Sequence record: KP869111
Origin: Escherichia coli O157 typing phage 13
Length of the DNA stretch: 64,000 nt
Strand: one strand, 5' to 3'
Both the position numbers and the translations under genes were made by a program. Below are positions 3,893 to 63,694 of this stretch, in pieces (position 1 is the stretch's first letter; each line of letters opens with the position of its first letter). A model generated the notes under the pieces. The model searched no databases. It was not told where the DNA came from and worked only from the letters and a program-made list of their open reading frames with translations.

Positions 3893-4455
3893 GTTGTCTC
3901 CTCGTTATGAAGGTATTCTATCATCCGAAATCTAAAGCAAANNNNNNNNNNNNNNNNNNNNNNNNNNNNNNNNNNNNNNNNNNNNNNNNNNNNNNNNNNN
4001 NNNNNNNNNNNNNNNNNNNNNNNNNNNNNNNNNNNNNNNNNNNNNNNNNNNNNNNNNNNNNNNNNNNNNNNNNNNNNNNNNNNNNNNNTTTTAACTGTAA
4101 TGACCACATCACCTGATACGATCACCGAACCATCAACAAATTCTATAGAGCCTTTTTTGAAATCGACAGCTGTATCTGGTTCCGGAACTTCTTCAAAGAA
4201 TTTAAATTCTGCACCATAAATCAGAATATCACCTTGCATACTAATGATTGTACGTCCAGGTCCATCGGTTTCAGCGGCAATCATTGAAACACCGTAGCCA
4301 ATCATCTCTTCTACAATAAAATCTCTTGATAATAAAACCGTATGCAGAGTAGTGTTAAGACGTTTACCAGTCGTATTAAGAATTCTCAAGAAATTATCTT
4401 CCTGTCCTTTGATAATACGATATTTCTTACCAACTTCAAAACCTTTAAAAGCCAT
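3889..4455 (-). CDS. hypothetical protein (ORF spans assembly gap)
   Basis: 188-codon ORF whose stop overlaps gp39 ATG (ATGA); middle 49 codons are N; C-terminal segment carries the gp39 SD. Confidence 0.4.
   Translation of the reverse strand: MAFKGFEVGKKYRIIKGQEDNFLRILNTTGKRLNTTLHTVLLSRDFIVEEMIGYGVSMIAAETDGPGRTIISMQGDILIYGAEFKFFEEVPEPDTAVDFKKGSIEFVDGSVIVSGDVVITVKXXXXXXXXXXXXXXXXXXXXXXXXXXXXXXXXXXXXXXXXXXXXXXXXXXCFRFRMIEYLHNEETT
3942..4088. other. assembly gap (147 N)
   Basis: run of n characters. Confidence 0.95.
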
Positions 4456-43402: not shown

Positions 43403-43873
43403 TTAATCATGTTTCCACACCCCATTGGTATTCGACCAAAGTCGCTGATTATCTGATCCTCGCCACAGTTTTTTGGTCGGAAGATTTTTCTCATACTTCC
43501 CATCAATAATAACATCAACATATTTAAGCATTTCTAGTTGTTTAATATCTTCAAACTTATATCCTGTCCACAACCAAATGCTTTTATTGGGATAAATATT
43601 TTTTACTGTTTGAACAATGCAATGAACAACATCTCTATTATCAGGATAGAGAGGGTCGCCTCCGGTTATAGTCAATCCTTCTATATAATCATTATTCAAA
43701 CATTCAATTAATTGTTCTAGTGTCTCTCCAGTGAATGGAGCACCATTTCTAGCGTTCCATGTTGATTTATTATAACACCCTTCACATTTATGCAAACAAC
43801 CTGTAACGAAAAGAACGACCCTGCAACCAGGGCCATTCACAAAATCGCAAGGATAAAATCTATCATAATTCAT
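43403..43873 (-). CDS. nrdG: anaerobic ribonucleotide reductase activating protein (radical SAM)
   Basis: 156 aa; CLHKCEGC radical-SAM cluster motif; matches T4 NrdG. Confidence 0.85.
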   Translation of the reverse strand: MNYDRFYPCDFVNGPGCRVVLFVTGCLHKCEGCYNKSTWNARNGAPFTGETLEQLIECLNNDYIEGLTITGGDPLYPDNRDVVHCIVQTVKNIYPNKSIWLWTGYKFEDIKQLEMLKYVDVIIDGKYEKNLPTKKLWRGSDNQRLWSNTNGVWKHD

Positions 43874-45687
43874 TGGTGTTTAACCCTATGCATGATTTCT
43901 TTATTTTTACCGAGATTAAATCCGCGTTCGTTCGGATTTCCCAAATAACCGCATGTTCTTCTTATGGTGTTCATCTTTTTAGGATCAGTTTCTCCGCAAA
44001 CTGAACAAACAAATCCGTTTTCAGTAGGAGTCATTTCATGGGTACTTCCACATGTAAAACATTTATCTACTGGCATATTAACACCAAAATAATCTAAATG
44101 TTGTGCAGCATAATCCCAGACAGCCTCAAGTCCCTTTAAATTGTTTTTCATATCTGGAAGTTCAACATAAGAAATGTGACCACCTGTCGCAATGAAATGA
44201 TATGGCGCTTCACGAGAAATCTTTTCAAACGGAGTAATATTTTCTTCTACTGAAACATGGAAACTATTAGTGTACCAGCCTTTATCTGTAACATCTTTTA
44301 CACTTCCATATTTTTCTGTGTCTAGTTTACAGAAACGATAACAAAGGTTTTCAGCAGGTGTAGAATACAAGCTAAAAGCAAACCCAGTTCTTTCAGTCCA
44401 TTGTTTAAGAAGAGCATTCATTTTAGTTAAAATTTCTTGTCCAATATCACGTCCGACAAGAATATTCAATTCGTGGATACCAATGTATCCTAAAGACACT
44501 GAACTTCTACCGTTTTTAAATAACTCAATTATGTCGTCATCAGGTTTAAGACGAACCCCGAATGCACCTTCTTGGTAAAGAATAGGAGCAACAGTCGCTT
44601 TAACTCCTTTTAAGGAACTAATTCTACACATCAAGGCTTCAAAACACAGATCCATACGTTCATTGAATAATTCAACAAATTTCTGTTCATTGAACTGTGT
44701 TCCAATATAAGAATCTAATGCGATACGAGGAAGATTCAGTGTTACAACACCGAGATTATTACGTCCATCAAGAATTTCATTACCAGTCGAATCTTTCCAT
44801 ACGCTCAAGAAACTACGGCAACCCATTGGAGAAACTGGAACTGAAGAACCAGTAATAGCTTTATTATTCTTAGCTGAAATAATATCAGGATACATTCTTT
44901 TGCTTGCGCACTCTAGAGCAAGCTGCTTAATATCATAGTTCGGATCGTCTTTATAAAGATTAACACCTTCTTCAACGAACATAACAAGCTTAGGGAAAAT
45001 AGGAGTTATTCCATCACGACCAAGACCTTTAATGCGGTTTTTAAGAATTGCCTTCTGAATCATTCGTTCAGTCCAATCGGCCCCCGTACCAAATGTAATT
45101 GTTACAAAAGGTGTTTGTCCGTTTGAACTAAAGAGAGTATTTACTTCATATTCATAAGCTTGGAACGCGTCATAGACATCTTTTTCTGTTTTGGATTGAG
45201 CATAATTCAACGCATCAGCGATTTGCCATTTTTCCGCATCTTCAACATGTTTAGCGTATGTGCGTTTAACATAAGGAGAAAGAACTTTATCGACATTTGC
45301 AAATGTAGTTCCGCCATACTGATGTGAAGCAACTTGTGCAGTAATTTGTGCCATAATTGCAGTAGCAACACCAATCGATTTAGGCGTTTCAATTTGAGCA
45401 TTGCCTAATTTAAATCCGTTCTCAAGCATCCCCTTTAAATCGACTAAACAACAATTAGTAAACGGAAGAGCAGGAGAATAATCAATATCATGCATGTGGA
45501 TAATTCCACTTTCATGCGCATTCATAATAAAAGACGGGACCATATTTTTGGCAATGTGCTTAGACACAATACCAGCCATAAGGTCCCGTTGAGTTGGAAA
45601 AACACGAGAATCTTTATTAGCATTCTCGTTTAAAAGGTCTTTATTAGTTTTATGAATTAATCCTTCAATTTCTTTTTCAATTTTCAT
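43870..45687 (-). CDS. nrdD: anaerobic ribonucleoside-triphosphate reductase (glycyl radical enzyme), uninterrupted
   Basis: 605 aa; C-terminal RRTCGYLG glycyl radical motif and Cys zinc site; no intron. Confidence 0.9.
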   Translation of the reverse strand: MKIEKEIEGLIHKTNKDLLNENANKDSRVFPTQRDLMAGIVSKHIAKNMVPSFIMNAHESGIIHMHDIDYSPALPFTNCCLVDLKGMLENGFKLGNAQIETPKSIGVATAIMAQITAQVASHQYGGTTFANVDKVLSPYVKRTYAKHVEDAEKWQIADALNYAQSKTEKDVYDAFQAYEYEVNTLFSSNGQTPFVTITFGTGADWTERMIQKAILKNRIKGLGRDGITPIFPKLVMFVEEGVNLYKDDPNYDIKQLALECASKRMYPDIISAKNNKAITGSSVPVSPMGCRSFLSVWKDSTGNEILDGRNNLGVVTLNLPRIALDSYIGTQFNEQKFVELFNERMDLCFEALMCRISSLKGVKATVAPILYQEGAFGVRLKPDDDIIELFKNGRSSVSLGYIGIHELNILVGRDIGQEILTKMNALLKQWTERTGFAFSLYSTPAENLCYRFCKLDTEKYGSVKDVTDKGWYTNSFHVSVEENITPFEKISREAPYHFIATGGHISYVELPDMKNNLKGLEAVWDYAAQHLDYFGVNMPVDKCFTCGSTHEMTPTENGFVCSVCGETDPKKMNTIRRTCGYLGNPNERGFNLGKNKEIMHRVKHQ

Positions 45688-58307: not shown

Positions 58308-58510
58308 TATTCTTCTACATGTTGTTTACGGCCTTTCTTATCAATAAAGGTATATTCAACGAATGTTCCGATGTAGTCTTTATCTACATCATGTGGACTA
58401 TTAATTGGACATTTGGTACGACAAATGCGTTCCCATTGACGAATAATTACTGCCTTATTCTTTGGGTCATATGGATGTGGATAATGTATATTCATAATAA
58501 CGGTTCCCAA
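58283..58510 (-). CDS. hypothetical small protein
   Basis: 75-aa ORF. Confidence 0.4.
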   Translation of the reverse strand: MGTVIMNIHYPHPYDPKNKAVIIRQWERICRTKCPINSPHDVDKDYIGTFVEYTFIDKKGRKQHVEEYCLKVTWL

Positions 58511-58989
58511 TCAACAATCACAATTTCTAGTTTAGTGGAATACGTATCTAAAATCTCTTCGATGACATCCCAGTTTCCGCCACCGATACCTGCACCAATT
58601 CTTGGCATATAAATTACAGGCTTTGTTATCTTATTCTTTCCGAATTCATTTAATTCTATTATACAATTCATTAAAGCAGAGTACTCAAAATTAGGTCCCG
58701 GCTCAAACTGCGTATAAAGATTAAAGCAATAAGCTTTATGGGTCTTAAAATATTTTTCATAAACCGAATAAGTCCCGAGTTTAGACTCGTCTCCGAATTC
58801 GGTTTGAAGTTTATCGGCTTCCAGAATTTTTGGATAAGCCTTTGCTAATTGTCCTGCCACACCGGCGCCCATTGTATGAAAACAATTACACCCATGAGCA
58901 ATATTATTACCTTTAGAAAACAGGGCGACAATATCGCCCTTGATATAGTTTTTAATCACTTGCTGCAAGTCCTCTAGTATAAGAGTCAA
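58492..58989 (-). CDS. macro-domain-like protein (putative ADP-ribose binding / ADP-ribosyl hydrolase)
   Basis: 165 aa; motifs NIAHGCNCFHTMGAGVAGQL and PRIGAGIGGG resemble macro domain glycine-rich loops. Confidence 0.45.
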   Translation of the reverse strand: MTLILEDLQQVIKNYIKGDIVALFSKGNNIAHGCNCFHTMGAGVAGQLAKAYPKILEADKLQTEFGDESKLGTYSVYEKYFKTHKAYCFNLYTQFEPGPNFEYSALMNCIIELNEFGKNKITKPVIYMPRIGAGIGGGNWDVIEEILDTYSTKLEIVIVDWEPLL

Positions 58990-59299
58990 CTAGACGGTCC
59001 ACCATAGAATTGCATGCTGCCTTATCTTTAGGTTCCGCCACCGAGCATTCTAATATTTGCCATTTTTTATAGTATCTTTTAATTAAGGTAGACGCCTTGA
59101 ACCTACTAGACGCCCCATCTTTTTCTCCGTCTTTATACGCGTATAACAATTTTTGTGAAAAATCTACTTTACACTCTTGACTTTTACCACAATAATCAGA
59201 CGCCGTTCTGTTTGTATACTCCGTTACATCAGTATATGTAGTATTAGCAAGAGCGTTAAATGAAACCAAGCTAACTATTAAAGCCAACATTTTGGTCAT
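58952..59299 (-). CDS. secreted Cys-containing protein
   Basis: 115 aa; signal peptide MTKMLALIVSLVSFNALA. Confidence 0.4.
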   Translation of the reverse strand: MTKMLALIVSLVSFNALANTTYTDVTEYTNRTASDYCGKSQECKVDFSQKLLYAYKDGEKDGASSRFKASTLIKRYYKKWQILECSVAEPKDKAACNSMVDRLVDSYTRGLAASD

Positions 59300-59838
59300 T
59301 CTTTTATTTCCAGTAGTTTATTTGATTTAAGGTAATTAGCCTTTTCTAGGACTTCAGAAGCATATTTACTTCCAGCACTTGTCTTCCATCCCGCATTATA
59401 TGAGGATATGGCTTTTCTTATATCCCCGTTATGTATATTTAACCAATAAGAAAATTCGATATAAGCCCATCTGGCTGAATTAGACCGCTTAGATAGCATT
59501 TTCTTAATTTGGGCATCAGTCATATTATAACCAAGCTGGTTAATTCTTGCCCTCATTGTTGGTAGATAGTTTTGGAACATTCCATACGCATGGTGACCTT
59601 TCTTATCTTTAAGATTAATACCGGCAGATGATTCTTGCCATAGTATTGCGGCCATTATGTATCCAAGTCCTTTCTTATGCATATTTTCATGCGTTTTAAA
59701 TTTTCCATCCTTAGAAAACTGTTCCCCAAACTGATAAGCATAATTCAAGTTATCGAGTTGGACATTACTAAAAGTATGCTCGGAGCTATGTGCTGATAAC
59801 GAAAGAGCAAATAGACCAGCGAGTAGTGCTTTTCTCAT
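59296..59838 (-). CDS. secreted lytic-transglycosylase-like (SLT domain) protein
   Basis: 180 aa; signal peptide; WQESS...AYGMFQ resembles the SLT catalytic E-S and GLMQ motifs. Confidence 0.55.
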   Translation of the reverse strand: MRKALLAGLFALSLSAHSSEHTFSNVQLDNLNYAYQFGEQFSKDGKFKTHENMHKKGLGYIMAAILWQESSAGINLKDKKGHHAYGMFQNYLPTMRARINQLGYNMTDAQIKKMLSKRSNSARWAYIEFSYWLNIHNGDIRKAISSYNAGWKTSAGSKYASEVLEKANYLKSNKLLEIKE

Positions 59839-59846
59839 GTTTACCT

Positions 59847-60305
59847 CTAGATTTTAATCACTGCTTTAGAAGCTTTTCCTGGTAGTCGTTTACTGTTAAT
59901 AATAGCCATTCTGCATTGAAGAGTCTTCATTTTGAATGCTGGATTTTCGCGACAAACTGTAAGTCCTAACCAAAGATTTCCATCAGTTATTTCTAAACGG
60001 CCTGGGCGATATTCGACACCTTCGACAAAATCTTCATCAACATCTGGACGGGCTGGCATTGATAAAAATTCTGCAACTTCTTTAACATGATTTTTTACTT
60101 TATGAAATAATTCAAAAACGTAATTCTCATCTATTTCTCTCTGGATGGCACGATCTAAGAGATGTTGAGAATACTTGATATGAAAGCCTGGTAGTCCAAG
60201 AGACTTTGCAGCATCTTTTATACTGGCATTTATTTTGCGGAACTCCGTTTCAAAGATTCGACGGAGTTTATTGCGGCGGATAAAAACGTCTGAATTGATA
60301 GTCAT
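59847..60305 (-). CDS. regB: RegB site-specific endoribonuclease
   Basis: 152 aa; MTINSDVFIRRNKLRR...KYSQHLLDRAIQREIDE matches T4 RegB. Confidence 0.85.
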   Translation of the reverse strand: MTINSDVFIRRNKLRRIFETEFRKINASIKDAAKSLGLPGFHIKYSQHLLDRAIQREIDENYVFELFHKVKNHVKEVAEFLSMPARPDVDEDFVEGVEYRPGRLEITDGNLWLGLTVCRENPAFKMKTLQCRMAIINSKRLPGKASKAVIKI

Positions 60306-60333
60306 TTTGATTTCTCCTCTAGTTGACAGGTCT

Positions 60334-60362
60334 ATAGTAACACAACTAGAGGAGAAGTAAAC
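60334..60362 (-). promoter_or_regulatory. early-type promoter GTTTAC-N17-TACTAT within inverted repeat (CCTCTAGTTG / CAACTAGAGG) pairing with regB SD
   Basis: arms at 60315-60324 and 60343-60352. Confidence 0.55.
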
Positions 60363-60661
60363 TACTCTTTGAAAGGAATTAACTTTTTAACTGCTTTAGA
60401 TACTTCGTCACGAACCTGGTGGAAGTTCTTGAGCTGTTCAAGGCGTTGTTCGTAATACGCAATCTCATCTTCTTCAAGACAATCGTCAGCGTCTTCTTTC
60501 AGATATGCCTTGTACTCATTAAAGAGGGCCCATAGGCGGTTCTCAAAGTCATCAAGGCTTTGAATTTTCTTGTGCTTCGGAACAAGGCCAAAAGGATTGC
60601 TTTCAGTTATGCGTCGAGATGCTTCATAATGAGTTCCAAAGCCTGATAGGATTTGAGCCAT
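60362..60661 (-). CDS. hypothetical protein
   Basis: Track ORF trimmed to MAQILSG with TAATG coupling. Confidence 0.4.
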
Positions 60662-60906
60662 TAGTATTTTTCCTCTGGTTGAAATACCGCACGACAAGCC
60701 CACATACTAGCTTCCTTTAGGCGTTCTTTAGCACAGTTCAATTGGGACAAAGCTGTCAAAGCTTCAGGAGTATTCGCAGACAACGCTTCTTCCGCCAAGG
60801 CATCGAAAATAAGCCCTAATCGAACTTCTGCATCTTTAATAGCGTTCACTTTACCGATTTTATCATCGGTATGCGGCTTGTAGCCTTTGATGTCTTCAAT
60901 CGACAT
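60661..60906 (-). CDS. hypothetical small protein
   Basis: Internal ATG (MSIEDIK) with GAGGAA SD; resolves overlap with 60896..61120. Confidence 0.35.
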
Positions 60907-61120
60907 AAGGAATTTCCTCATCGGTGGCAAGGTCATATTCGACCAATTGGATAGGCTCATTAATACCATATCCACGTACAGTGATATCGGTTGTCGGATA
61001 TTTTCCAGTAATATCACCCATTCTAAATGCTTCAGTGAATGATTGCTCGCCTGAGCAACTAAACCAGGCGGCAAAACATTTTAAAACATCTTCAGACCCT
61101 TCTATAATCAATTTAGCCAT
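60896..61120 (-). CDS. hypothetical small acidic protein
   Basis: 74 aa; TAATG coupling to GrcA-like gene. Confidence 0.4.
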   Translation of the reverse strand: MAKLIIEGSEDVLKCFAAWFSCSGEQSFTEAFRMGDITGKYPTTDITVRGYGINEPIQLVEYDLATDEEIPYVD

Positions 61121-61482
61121 TATAGACTCTCAGTAAAGGTACGAGCGATAACGTCGCGCTGCTGTTCCGGGGTCAGAGAGTTAAAGCGAACTGCATAACC
61201 GGATACACGGATGGTCAGCTGTGGATATTTTTCCGGATGCTTAACTGCATCTTCCAGAGTTTCGCGACGCAGAACGTTAACGTTCAGATGTTGACCACCT
61301 TCAATTTTAACTTTAGGTTGATGTTCAATTTCAATTTCACGGGCATTCAAACCGTAGAAAATTTCCGGGTCTACAATAGCGTCTTCTTTAAAAGTCTTAG
61401 AGACGATAATCCGGGCTTGAGTACCGTCTTCAAAATAAATAGTGCCTTTATGTGCACCTTCAAGAATTTGATATGCTTTCAT
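61120..61482 (-). CDS. autonomous glycyl radical cofactor (GrcA/YfiD-like; T4 Y06I-type)
   Basis: 120 aa; C-terminal [59 protein letters not shown] with RVSGY glycyl radical motif, essentially as in enterobacterial GrcA. Confidence 0.75.
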
Positions 61483-61488
61483 ATAACC

Positions 61489-61797
61489 TCAATTAGAAAA
61501 TAAATTTATCCAAGTTTTTTCTTTAATCAAAAATGGGTCAGAACTAAACGCCATTAAACTTTGAGTGATTAATCCCTTAAATGGCCCATCAATAAATTCC
61601 ATTTTGAAATGCGGAATACTAGTCATCAACCGTGCGTTAGGAGCAGTACAAAGAACCTGCTGCCCTGCGAACGGACCTTTAGTCAAACGGTATCGTTTAG
61701 GTTTAAAATGGTAAATCTCGTAATTTTCTACAAGAGCCCTTTTATTGCATACTGGGCTGTTATAACAATATTCAAAAACTTCAATAGTGGTCATCAT
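61489..61797 (-). CDS. hypothetical protein
   Basis: 102-aa ORF. Confidence 0.45.
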   Translation of the reverse strand: MMTTIEVFEYCYNSPVCNKRALVENYEIYHFKPKRYRLTKGPFAGQQVLCTAPNARLMTSIPHFKMEFIDGPFKGLITQSLMAFSSDPFLIKEKTWINLFSN

Positions 61798-62333
61798 TGC
61801 ATTCCAATCACAAAAAATTGAGGACGAGCATTACCGCCGATGCAATATTTGCTTTTGCAGCAGTACTGTACTGTTTTAATATGGACATTGTAAATCTTAT
61901 CCATATCAGGAGCTTTAATAGGCTCGTCAATTATATACAGAATACGAGAAAGCGTTAATCCACGGAATTTAGAACCTTCATTGCCAATAAAACTACGAAC
62001 AGAATCAGTAAATAAACGGAATCGAATATCATCGCTAGAATAACGAGAAAATTCTTTTTCAATGTTACCAGCAGAAATTTTAGCATAAGCTGAAGTATTA
62101 GAAAGAACAATAACTGTTCCGCCATCATACAGCCAATTAGCAGCAAAGTTAGTCACAGCAATTGATTTACCGGATTGTCTGCCACCGTCTAAACGAAGTG
62201 TACAGTACTGCTTGAGTACGTCTTCAAACGGTGGGATATAACCGTTCTTACAAATTTCTTCTACTCTAGCATCAGAATGGTGTGTAAAAGCATTCATCAG
62301 GGATAGATAAGGTCCAGTTAAAAATGTTCTCAT
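61794..62333 (-). CDS. hypothetical P-loop-containing protein
   Basis: 179 aa; GGRQSGKS Walker-A-like. Confidence 0.45.
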   Translation of the reverse strand: MRTFLTGPYLSLMNAFTHHSDARVEEICKNGYIPPFEDVLKQYCTLRLDGGRQSGKSIAVTNFAANWLYDGGTVIVLSNTSAYAKISAGNIEKEFSRYSSDDIRFRLFTDSVRSFIGNEGSKFRGLTLSRILYIIDEPIKAPDMDKIYNVHIKTVQYCCKSKYCIGGNARPQFFVIGMQ

Positions 62334-62506
62334 TTAGTTTCTCTTTTATGTTGGGCCATTCCGTGGCACATGTTAGGTCCTTCGACTCGCTATGTAAACC
62401 CATTACCGCACTTGGGCTCGACATTATTACAGGTTGGAAAAGGTACATCACTCAGAGGACTCGACGTTCATGAGGAGAGGTTGCGTTTCCCTTTATTAGG
62501 CAAGAA

Positions 62507-62932
62507 TTATACTCTAGGCTTTTGAGCTTGTTTGGTATTGGATTCCCATGCGGCTTTGGTAATTTTGTTAGTGGCATAACCAAAGGCATTAGATAGAACA
62601 CCTTTAGAGTTGAATACATCCAATCCAATAAGTACACCGGCTGTGTTAAATTTAGGAGCAAAGTACGCATTAGTTTTAGAAAGAGCTTTTTTCAATTCNN
62701 NNNNNNNNNNNNNNNNNNNNNNNNNNNNNNNNNNNNNNNNNNNNNNNNNNNNNNNNNNNNNNNNNNNNNNNNNNNNNNNNNNNNNNNNNNNNNNAGGGTC
62801 TTGAACCAAACCATCAAAAACGCCTTTACTATTTACTTTATATGTTACTTTGGGATTTTTACCTTCTTCGATAGCAGCTTTCTGTTCCGCAGATAATGTA
62901 ACTTCAGTGATAAACTCCTGATATGTTTTCAT
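62507..62932 (-). CDS. head internal protein (IP) with capsid targeting sequence; ORF spans assembly gap
   Basis: N-terminus MKTYQEFITE is the T4 IP capsid-targeting signature; 32 codons are N. Confidence 0.5.
   Translation of the reverse strand: MKTYQEFITEVTLSAEQKAAIEEGKNPKVTYKVNSKGVFDGLVQDPXXXXXXXXXXXXXXXXXXXXXXXXXXXXXXXXELKKALSKTNAYFAPKFNTAGVLIGLDVFNSKGVLSNAFGYATNKITKAAWESNTKQAQKPRV
62699..62794. other. assembly gap (96 N)
   Basis: run of n characters. Confidence 0.95.
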
Positions 62933-62940
62933 TTTGTTCC

Positions 62941-63351
62941 TTAGTAAATTGATTTACCATAGTATTTGTACCAAGTCGGACGTTGAGCAATTTTTTCATC
63001 TAAGCGTGCTTGACTTATCGCAATGGACGCTTCGGACGGGACGTAATTATTACGAAATTCTACAGGAATGTCGGAAATATCCTGGACTGTCGTGTCCTTG
63101 ATTTTGAAACCACGTTTCAAGCATTCGGCGATTAGCTCGATTTGACGTAAACGTAAAAATTCGAGTTTGTCGTAAAAGAATGTTACGTGACCTGTGCCTA
63201 AGATAAATGTTGGAGAGATTTTAAAATCCTTTACACGTTTACCGTTTTGAACATGTTTACGGACTGCACCAAATACGCGTGGTAATTCACGATACTCAGC
63301 CATAAGATGTTGGTCGGACAGTTCAGAAACAAGTGTTAAATTGATACGAGT
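62941..63351 (-). CDS. denV: endonuclease V (pyrimidine dimer DNA glycosylase)
   Basis: [31 protein letters not shown] matches T4 DenV; start at MTRINL (track ORF extends 5 codons). Confidence 0.85.
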
Positions 63352-63381
63352 CATAATTTCCTCCAAGTAGTTGATGAATGT

Positions 63382-63411
63382 ATAGTATCAAAACTCTTGG
63401 AGGAAGTAAAC
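63382..63411 (-). promoter_or_regulatory. early-type promoter GTTTAC-N18-TACTAT with inverted repeat (CTCCAAG / CTTGGAG) around the denV SD
   Basis: seen on minus strand upstream of denV ATG. Confidence 0.5.
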
Positions 63412-63412
63412 A

Positions 63413-63694
63413 CTATTTTTCTGAAGCGCCTGAAATATATTTTTCAAGACGTTGTTTCATCAGCGAGCCGTTCTTAGCGATTTCTTCCGGTTTATCGCAC
63501 ATACGCAACAAGGCTTCAAGCTTAACGATATCACTGGTGCGCTCAAATTTGCGAGTATCTATCTTACTGGCAAGTTCAGAAATACGTGCTAATAGACTTT
63601 CAGCTTCAACCAAAGCTGCACCTAGCTTAGTTGCAAATGTGTCAGTAGCTTCGTTAAGAATAGATTCTGATAAAAATTCACTATATGTTTTCAT
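63413..63694 (-). CDS. head internal protein (IP) with capsid targeting sequence
   Basis: [10 protein letters not shown] at the N-terminus (track ORF begins 5 codons upstream); position of ipII/ipIII between denV and e. Confidence 0.5.

Follow-up and report, generated by a model that had tools for sequence, protein, structure and literature searches.

Two proteins, YfiD (GrcA) from Escherichia coli and bacteriophage T4's Y06I, are named as the only experimentally validated spare-part proteins for pyruvate formate-lyase (PFL) in a report (PMC8683613) that cites Wagner et al. 2001. As summarized there on the same authority, either protein receives a glycyl radical from PFL-activating enzyme (PFL-AE) and binds PFL that has been cleaved by oxygen (O2), and enzyme activity is restored. 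YfiD consists of a disordered part, residues 1-60, which promotes binding and activation, and a structured part, residues 61-127, which replaces the lost C-terminus of PFL (PMC8683613). Here, we describe the counterpart of these genes in a stretch of 64,000 nucleotides (nt) from E. coli O157 typing phage 13 (KP869111; the whole stretch is called the window below), a segment of a T-even (Straboviridae) phage genome. The open reading frame (ORF) concerned, vs.6, very probably encodes a Y06I-type PFL spare part whose core has been replaced by host grcA, and replaced repeatedly.

By sequence comparison, the ORF is the Mosigvirus ortholog of T4 vs.6 (Y06I), the phage autonomous glycyl radical cofactor. 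Its product is identical to T4 Y06I (NP_049730) at 112 of 120 residues (93.3%), and the gene has 100% nt identity to one in the Mosigvirus E. coli O157 typing phage 3 (KP869101) that is annotated as grcA, an autonomous glycyl radical cofactor. The phage 13 and T4 genes have in common their length of 120 amino acids (aa), a position between vs.7 and vs.5, and an E. coli-type tract, which in T4 is 98.8% identical to E. coli grcA. They are set apart by eight substitutions, seven of them N-terminal and one (R73H in T4) in the tract, by an 11% nt difference in the 5' half (synonymous divergence [dS], 0.44), and by their last three codons. Gly_radical is the sole Pfam domain of the protein (residues 60-101, E = 2e-18), with no catalytic barrel, as in the small stand-alone cofactors of the GrcA family (about 14 kDa); among solved structures the top match is YfiD/GrcA (PDB 6owr, E = 2e-42), and the best NCBIfam match by far is TIGR04365 GrcA (InterPro IPR011140). 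Homologs occur in approximately 1,590 phage records, T5-like and jumbo phages among them. Both gene and function were known before, and the annotation as grcA is in GenBank; the gene itself adds nothing new.

Like E. coli GrcA, the phage protein has a two-part layout that ends in the conserved domain with its radical glycine: phage residues 61-120 are identical to residues 68-127 of E. coli K-12 GrcA at 60 of 60 positions. This agrees with an earlier interpretation made from the DNA letters alone (the sequence-only reading), in which the last 60 or so residues had been taken for a nearly exact match to the host glycyl radical domain. The radical motif that was to be sought on alignment is present as well; when phage residues 57-120 are placed on PFL residues 696-759 (PDB 1h16/1cm5), Gly95 lies opposite the radical glycine G734. 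Unlike GrcA, the phage protein is 7 residues shorter, is only about 30% identical in its N-terminal half, and comes from a gene in a phage cluster, whereas GrcA is expressed from the host grcA locus. That half had been described as unrelated to GrcA, a description that has to be withdrawn, since it is collinear with the GrcA N-terminus as a diverged homolog (18 of 60 residues identical; BLASTP, 33% over 40 aa, E = 9e-6), with hidden Markov model alignments of the protein to GrcA beginning at residue 18-21. The N-terminal 60 or so residues are likely homologous to the disordered region of YfiD. The C-terminal glycyl radical domain of PflB (PDB 1h16, residues 696-759), the piece that the spare part replaces, shares the fold element and the motif; PflB, however, is 759 aa long, 12 of its last 60 residues are different, and the nucleotides of the phage tract are clearly of the grcA type, not the pflB type.

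At the nucleotide level, vs.6 is a mosaic. In a codon alignment with E. coli K-12 grcA, codons 61-120 are identical at 174 of 180 nt, compared with 48% identity over codons 1-60, a contrast that upholds the sharp identity boundary proposed by the sequence-only reading. All six differences in codons 61-120 are synonymous, and three of them sit in the last three codons, which are identical to those of RB16- and KP15-type phages. The remaining tract is 98.2% identical to E. coli K-12, so the low nucleotide identity to host grcA against which that reading had asked to be checked was not what the alignment gave. Third codon positions are 38% identical to E. coli grcA over codons 1-60 and 90% over codons 61-120, and residues shared with the host protein are encoded by the same codon in 54 of 60 cases in the 3' half but in 9 of 18 in the 5' half (Fisher p = 0.0006). 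A max-chi-square analysis with E. coli grcA and an RB16-like phage gene as parents delimited the host-type block to gene nt 180-351, the observed value being reached in 0 of 300 permutations. Base composition changes in step: the tract has a G+C content (GC) of 49.7%, as against 35.6% for the 5' half (25% at third codon positions [GC3]) and 37.2% for the window, and is the highest-GC 171-nt stretch within the 64-kb window, with a GC3 far above the phage norm. When the whole window was compared by megablast with 5,426 complete E. coli genomes, the sole matching stretch was 61112..61304, and the match was grcA in every genome. The 5' half, in turn, has 89% nt identity to T4-type genes and 58-75% to CC31-, RB16-, and KP15-type phage genes. 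The conversion tract coincides with the structured domain of YfiD. At its other end, the annotated ribosome binding site of the downstream gene in Klebsiella phage pKp20 lies inside the final vs.6 codons, and overlap with the start region or ribosome binding site of vs.5 may select against conversion of this edge.

Of 80 grcA loci of other species, from a scan that gave none of E. coli, Salmonella, or K. pneumoniae themselves, many encode exactly the same 60-residue sequence. Identity to the E. coli tract was 91.8% in Citrobacter, 91.2% in Trabulsiella, 88.3% in Serratia, 84.2% in Pectobacterium, and 75.4% in Xenorhabdus, and RB16-like E. coli phages had 100% aa but 84% nt identity to it. The phage tract is nearer to Escherichia than to any of the other genera that encode this protein sequence. 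The phage tract has a dS of 0.07 to E. coli, the same as that between E. coli and cryptic Escherichia (0.07), whereas E. coli and Citrobacter are separated by 0.42; the donor is therefore placed in Escherichia, and the transfer is recent relative to the divergence of enterobacterial genera. Since the best of the 5,426 E. coli genomes has only 96.8% identity over the 3' 185 nt, "recent" is to be understood on the scale of the genus Escherichia and outside present-day E. coli diversity. Thus, of the recent host-derived recombination that the sequence-only reading had suggested, the host origin stands, while the recency holds only at this genus scale; the tract is shared by more than 600 Tequatrovirus- and Mosigvirus-type records and is not private to this phage. 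Phage 13 differs from T4 by a dS of 0.44 over the 5' half but of 0.10 over the tract, and the corresponding ranges against T4-type phages are 0.39-0.52 and 0.10-0.15, values which suggest that the tract may be younger than the Mosigvirus/Tequatrovirus split.

A second host genus provides a comparison. Klebsiella phage pKp20 (Jiaodavirus) has an orthologous 120-aa gene with a phage-type 5' half (dS of 1.3 to the window gene) and a breakpoint between codons 60 and 61, as in the window gene. In codons 61-112, however, its identity is 98.1% with K. pneumoniae grcA but only 88% with E. coli grcA, and it has both Klebsiella-type residues, L77 and E81. The tracts of the two hosts are 11.7% apart; for these comparisons, E. 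coli grcA was taken from the E. coli genome collection, and the source of K. pneumoniae grcA was a chromosome that had been filed among plasmids. The presence of a Klebsiella tract in Klebsiella phages means that conversion from the host happened more than once. Throughout the phage database, the identity distributions of the tracts are bimodal. The E. coli tract finds 252 records at ≥99% (phage DCP548 being identical at 171 of 171 nt), 390 at 95-99%, 2 at 90-95%, and 104 at 80-90%, the listed examples of the last group being Klebsiella phages. The K. pneumoniae tract finds 106 records at 95-99% and 527 at 80-90%; the examples listed are Klebsiella phages for the former and mostly E. coli and Shigella phages for the latter. 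Within Jiaodavirus, pKp20 and KP182 differ at 0 of 180 positions in the 5' half and at 8 of 156 in the tract (p = 0.002), phage PKO111 has 96.7% identity to pKp20 over its 5' half but 91% over the tract, and in Nispero the host-type block has a 3' end different from that in pKp20. That the most constrained part of the gene is the more variable one, and that the tract ends vary, fits repeated import of different host alleles. We consider it likely that virulent T-even phages have at vs.6 a hot spot of gene conversion that is recurrent and follows the host, at which a core of about 170 nt is repeatedly overwritten by the grcA of the current host genus and the phage N-terminal half is never replaced.

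How such a gene arose and might work can be outlined as follows. The sequence shows a backbone that is an old phage-resident grcA-like gene, represented by codons 1-60 and the last three codons, in which core codons 61-117 were replaced by Escherichia grcA via homologous recombination or gene conversion with host DNA. Host DNA fragments may pair with the only block in which the phage and host genes can still be aligned, heteroduplex or annealing would end where homology ends, and replication or repair would fix the host strand. The tract occupies the whole alignable block of the two genes, which fits such pairing. In Klebsiella Jiaodavirus, the same replacement, at the same 5' breakpoint, occurred with Klebsiella grcA, and the locus thus appears to be overwritten repeatedly by the allele of the resident host. 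In the infected cell, the host radical-SAM activase PFL-AE would install the radical on Gly95, and the C-terminal domain would fill the active site of a host PFL whose own glycyl radical domain had been cleaved by O2, or of PFL that was otherwise inactive; conversion of pyruvate to acetyl-CoA and formate would thereby be restored during microaerobic or anaerobic infection. Repair of O2-cleaved host PFL, as the sequence-only reading had envisaged, fits a gene whose ortholog, T4 Y06I, is described as a validated spare part in PMC8683613. Formate from active PFL might in turn supply NrdD/NrdG of the phage: most of the class III ribonucleotide reductases (RNRs) that have been characterized use formate as reductant, and T4 NrdD has been suggested to have a formate-binding site (PMC4493059).

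Intragenic recombination between host and phage is known from other auxiliary metabolic genes. A parallel for the mosaic itself is psbA of cyanophages, in which phage and host copies reportedly swap internal segments to yield mosaic genes, as Zeidner et al. in 2005 and Sullivan et al. in 2006 are said to have found. Unlike that case, the phage here is a virulent T-even that destroys host DNA, and the tract, of about 170 nt, fills the alignable block and tracks the host genus.

Alternatively, the C-terminal identity may have arisen with no recombination at all, through extreme purifying selection and shared codon preference acting on a domain that must fit host PFL and PFL-AE. Constraint on the domain is indeed very strong, as many enterobacteria and RB16-like phages have the identical 60 aa, and the boundary lies where the disordered half of YfiD meets the structured one (PMC8683613). 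Selection on protein, however, does not fix synonymous sites: sequences encoding the same amino acids are only 75-92% identical in nucleotides among enterobacteria, compared with 98.2% for this phage, and purifying selection is therefore not the cause of the match. In addition, Klebsiella phages match Klebsiella codons and not E. coli codons, the tract of Jiaodavirus is more variable than its 5' half, which is the opposite of what constraint predicts, and the elevated GC3 of the tract also speaks against a selection-only origin, which we regard as extremely improbable. Scarcely better placed, and still very improbable, is a single, recent capture of the whole host grcA gene followed by very fast divergence of a disordered, weakly constrained 5' half. 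This would account for an N-terminal half that is homologous to the GrcA N-terminus and is the less constrained part (PMC8683613), but the tenfold gap in synonymous divergence implied by the third positions is impossible in one gene of a single age, and the sharing of the 5' half with distant CC31, RB16, and KP15 types that are without the tract shows that the phage backbone predates it.

Identity alone gives no direction, and transfer of the 3' half of grcA from phages to Escherichia and Klebsiella has nothing more specific in its favor. Distances among the host tracts follow host phylogeny (E. coli is 98.2% identical to cryptic Escherichia, 91.8% to Citrobacter, and 88.3% to Klebsiella), host grcA genes have no break at codon 67/68 between species, and the GC of the tract is host-like and the maximum of the phage window. 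Because of this phylogenetic pattern and host-like composition, and because the 5' half is common to distant T4-like phages lacking the tract, the direction is read as host to phage, and the reverse has a negligible probability. The chance that phage reads and contaminating host reads were assembled into a chimera is just as slight: although host DNA is present in phage lysates, more than 600 phage records sequenced independently have the mosaic with its phage-type flanks, as does the reference genome of T4, and the tract has phage-specific synonymous changes. Selection alone, whole-gene capture, reverse transfer, and assembly artifact were accordingly rejected on synonymous-site, backbone, phylogenetic, and multi-record evidence. 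A different role for the protein is very unlikely, if slightly less remote; it could serve as a spare glycyl radical domain for phage NrdD or for TdcE, or it could be a decoy, drawing PFL-AE away or blocking host PFL. A function in nucleotide metabolism was guessed early, since the Gly_radical domain is also found in NrdD (PMC1524935), TdcE too has a PFL-type C-terminus, and the phage protein differs from the host protein in the very half that governs binding to cleaved PFL and activation (PMC8683613). The C-terminal domain, however, is identical to that of GrcA and 80% identical to PflB residues 700-759, whereas the C-terminal sequence of the window NrdD is different, and T4 Y06I is reported in PMC8683613, citing Wagner 2001, to restore cleaved PFL in vitro.

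Several observations weigh against a host-rewritten PFL spare part, or against its being rewritten repeatedly. Recombination with the host is expected to be rare in T-even phages, which break down the DNA of the host and themselves use modified cytosine. Independent conversion in Mosigvirus and Tequatrovirus is no more than suggested (p = 0.01-0.12 per pair), and a single conversion followed by phage-to-phage exchange between the two groups is equally possible. The tract is of the E. coli type in T-even phages whose isolation host was Yersinia or Citrobacter rodentium (98.8% in one Yersinia isolate), and RB16-, RB43-, KP15-, CC31-, and T5-type genes have no host-like tract, their best bacterial match in the set being ≤84%. 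The tract of the K. oxytoca phage PKO111, which is 91% identical to K. pneumoniae grcA as well as to the pKp20 tract, was not traced to its donor, perhaps an allele of the K. oxytoca complex: a metagenome scan with a 20-nt allele-specific pattern yielded only Enterobacter-type grcA (≤89%) and unrelated genes, and the plasmid collection scanned for the same purpose held no K. oxytoca grcA. Regarding function, the TIGR04365 score of the vs.6 protein, at 159.1 bits, falls narrowly short of the curated cut-off (170; E. coli GrcA reaches 234), a shortfall for which the first 17 residues and the divergence of the N-terminal half account. The role of the window protein in infected cells is predicted, by transfer from the T4 ortholog, to be that of Y06I and YfiD. 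A formate link from vs.6 to NrdD/NrdG is plausible, although the genes are 15 kb apart.

Some further features of the related genes were recorded along the way. Codon R73 is polymorphic in T-even phages (CGC, CGT, and CGG), CGT being that of the cryptic-Escherichia and Citrobacter alleles, and the R73H change of T4 is non-synonymous within an otherwise host-identical tract. The C-terminal 60 aa of RB16- and RB43-/KP15-like genes are 97-100% identical to host GrcA, with nt identity of only 80-84% to any bacterium sampled. KP15-like genes carry the Klebsiella-type L77/E81 regardless, which may reflect an older conversion or convergence. Metagenome contig Ga0079224_100765817 holds an Enterobacter-type grcA that switches after RVSGYAV to the C-terminus of another glycyl radical enzyme (NFVKLTREQQEEVIERT...); either the assembly is chimeric, or recombination took place here too at that conserved motif. 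Among PLSDB "plasmid" records, some are in fact chromosomes or parts of them (CP125156.1 and LR134122.1; 5.37 Mb for K. pneumoniae), and grcA of K. aerogenes NCTC10006 is frameshifted in its PLSDB assembly.

Table 1. Coordinates in the window of vs.6, its putative mosaic segments, and the genes discussed with it
Feature	Coordinates	Strand	Remarks
Glycyl radical ORF (vs.6/Y06I ortholog, GrcA-like)	61120..61482	minus	ATG to TAA, 120 aa plus stop
Codons 1-60, phage-type 5' half	61303..61482	minus	48% nt and 18/60 aa identity to E. coli grcA
Codons 61-117, putative host-derived conversion tract (structured glycyl radical domain)	61132..61302	minus	168/171 nt identical to E. coli K-12 grcA
Last three codons (GAG AGT CTA) plus TAA, phage-type 3' edge	61120..61131	minus	E. 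coli has GAA AGC CTG
Glycyl radical motif	61174..61209	minus	Residues 92-103, RVSGYAV being 92-98; direct reading
Gly95 codon	61198..61200	minus	Counterpart of PFL G734 and YfiD G102
vs.5-like ORF, downstream	60896..61120	minus	Weak match to T4 vs.5; start overlaps vs.6 stop (TAATG)
vs.7 ortholog, upstream	61489..61797	minus	63% aa identity to T4 vs.7
nrdD, class III (anaerobic) RNR	43870..45687	minus	Pfam NRDD, E = 1e-170, plus Gly_radical
nrdG, radical-SAM activase of NrdD	43403..43873	minus	Pfam Fer4_12 and Radical_SAM

The surroundings of vs.6 keep the T4 gene order, with orthologs of tk, tk.4, vs, vs.1, regB, vs.3, vs.4, vs.5, vs.6, vs.7, vs.8, and denV all on the minus strand. The sequence-only reading had placed the gene next to an anaerobic RNR system; nrdD and nrdG are present and confirmed by Pfam, but they lie 15.4 kb away with dozens of ORFs between, and a common strand is all that they share with vs.6 in position. 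In T4, vs.6 is likewise far from nrdD/nrdG (>11 kb). A scan of 60200..63500 for promoter and terminator consensus sequences gave counts no higher than in shuffled sequence. Among the neighbors, the orthologs of vs.8 (61794..62333), vs.7, and vs.1 (59296..59838) are mislabeled "endoribonuclease RegB" in KP869101 (ECTP3_00287, 00288, and 00294); comparison with T4 indicates that of the four KP869101 "RegB" ORFs only 59847..60305 (ECTP3_00293) is the true regB. The vs.1 product has been described as SLT-like (PMC1524935). A few genes downstream of vs.6, the tk.4 ortholog (58492..58989) has 84% identity to its T4 counterpart; the annotation reads macro domain protein in KP869101 but A1pp phosphatase in T4. 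The window contains two masked runs of N, 3942-4088 and 62699-62794. The latter falls within an ORF (62507..62932) between denV and vs.8, where T4 has no gene; its product begins MKTYQEFI, like T4 internal proteins, and matches ipII weakly.

In sum, host-tracking gene conversion at vs.6 is a modest addition to a known gene. No description of a mosaic or of conversion at vs.6 was found in the searchable literature, which omits most subscription journals and is weak evidence in this respect. The locus offers a clean and quantitative case of a virulent T-even gene patched with host chromosomal sequence, with sharp breakpoints and with a second host genus as an independent replicate. It also illustrates that amino acid identity alone would have misled here, as RB16-type phages share the protein sequence without recent transfer. 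For annotation, the nearest host allele at vs.6 reports the evolutionary host and not the isolation host, given that Yersinia- and Citrobacter-isolated phages carry the E. coli tract. If host-tracking conversion is borne out, vs.6 would be a natural and easily assayed reporter of recombination between a lytic phage and a chromosome under degradation, and conversion might be adaptive in keeping the spare part matched to the enzyme of the host.

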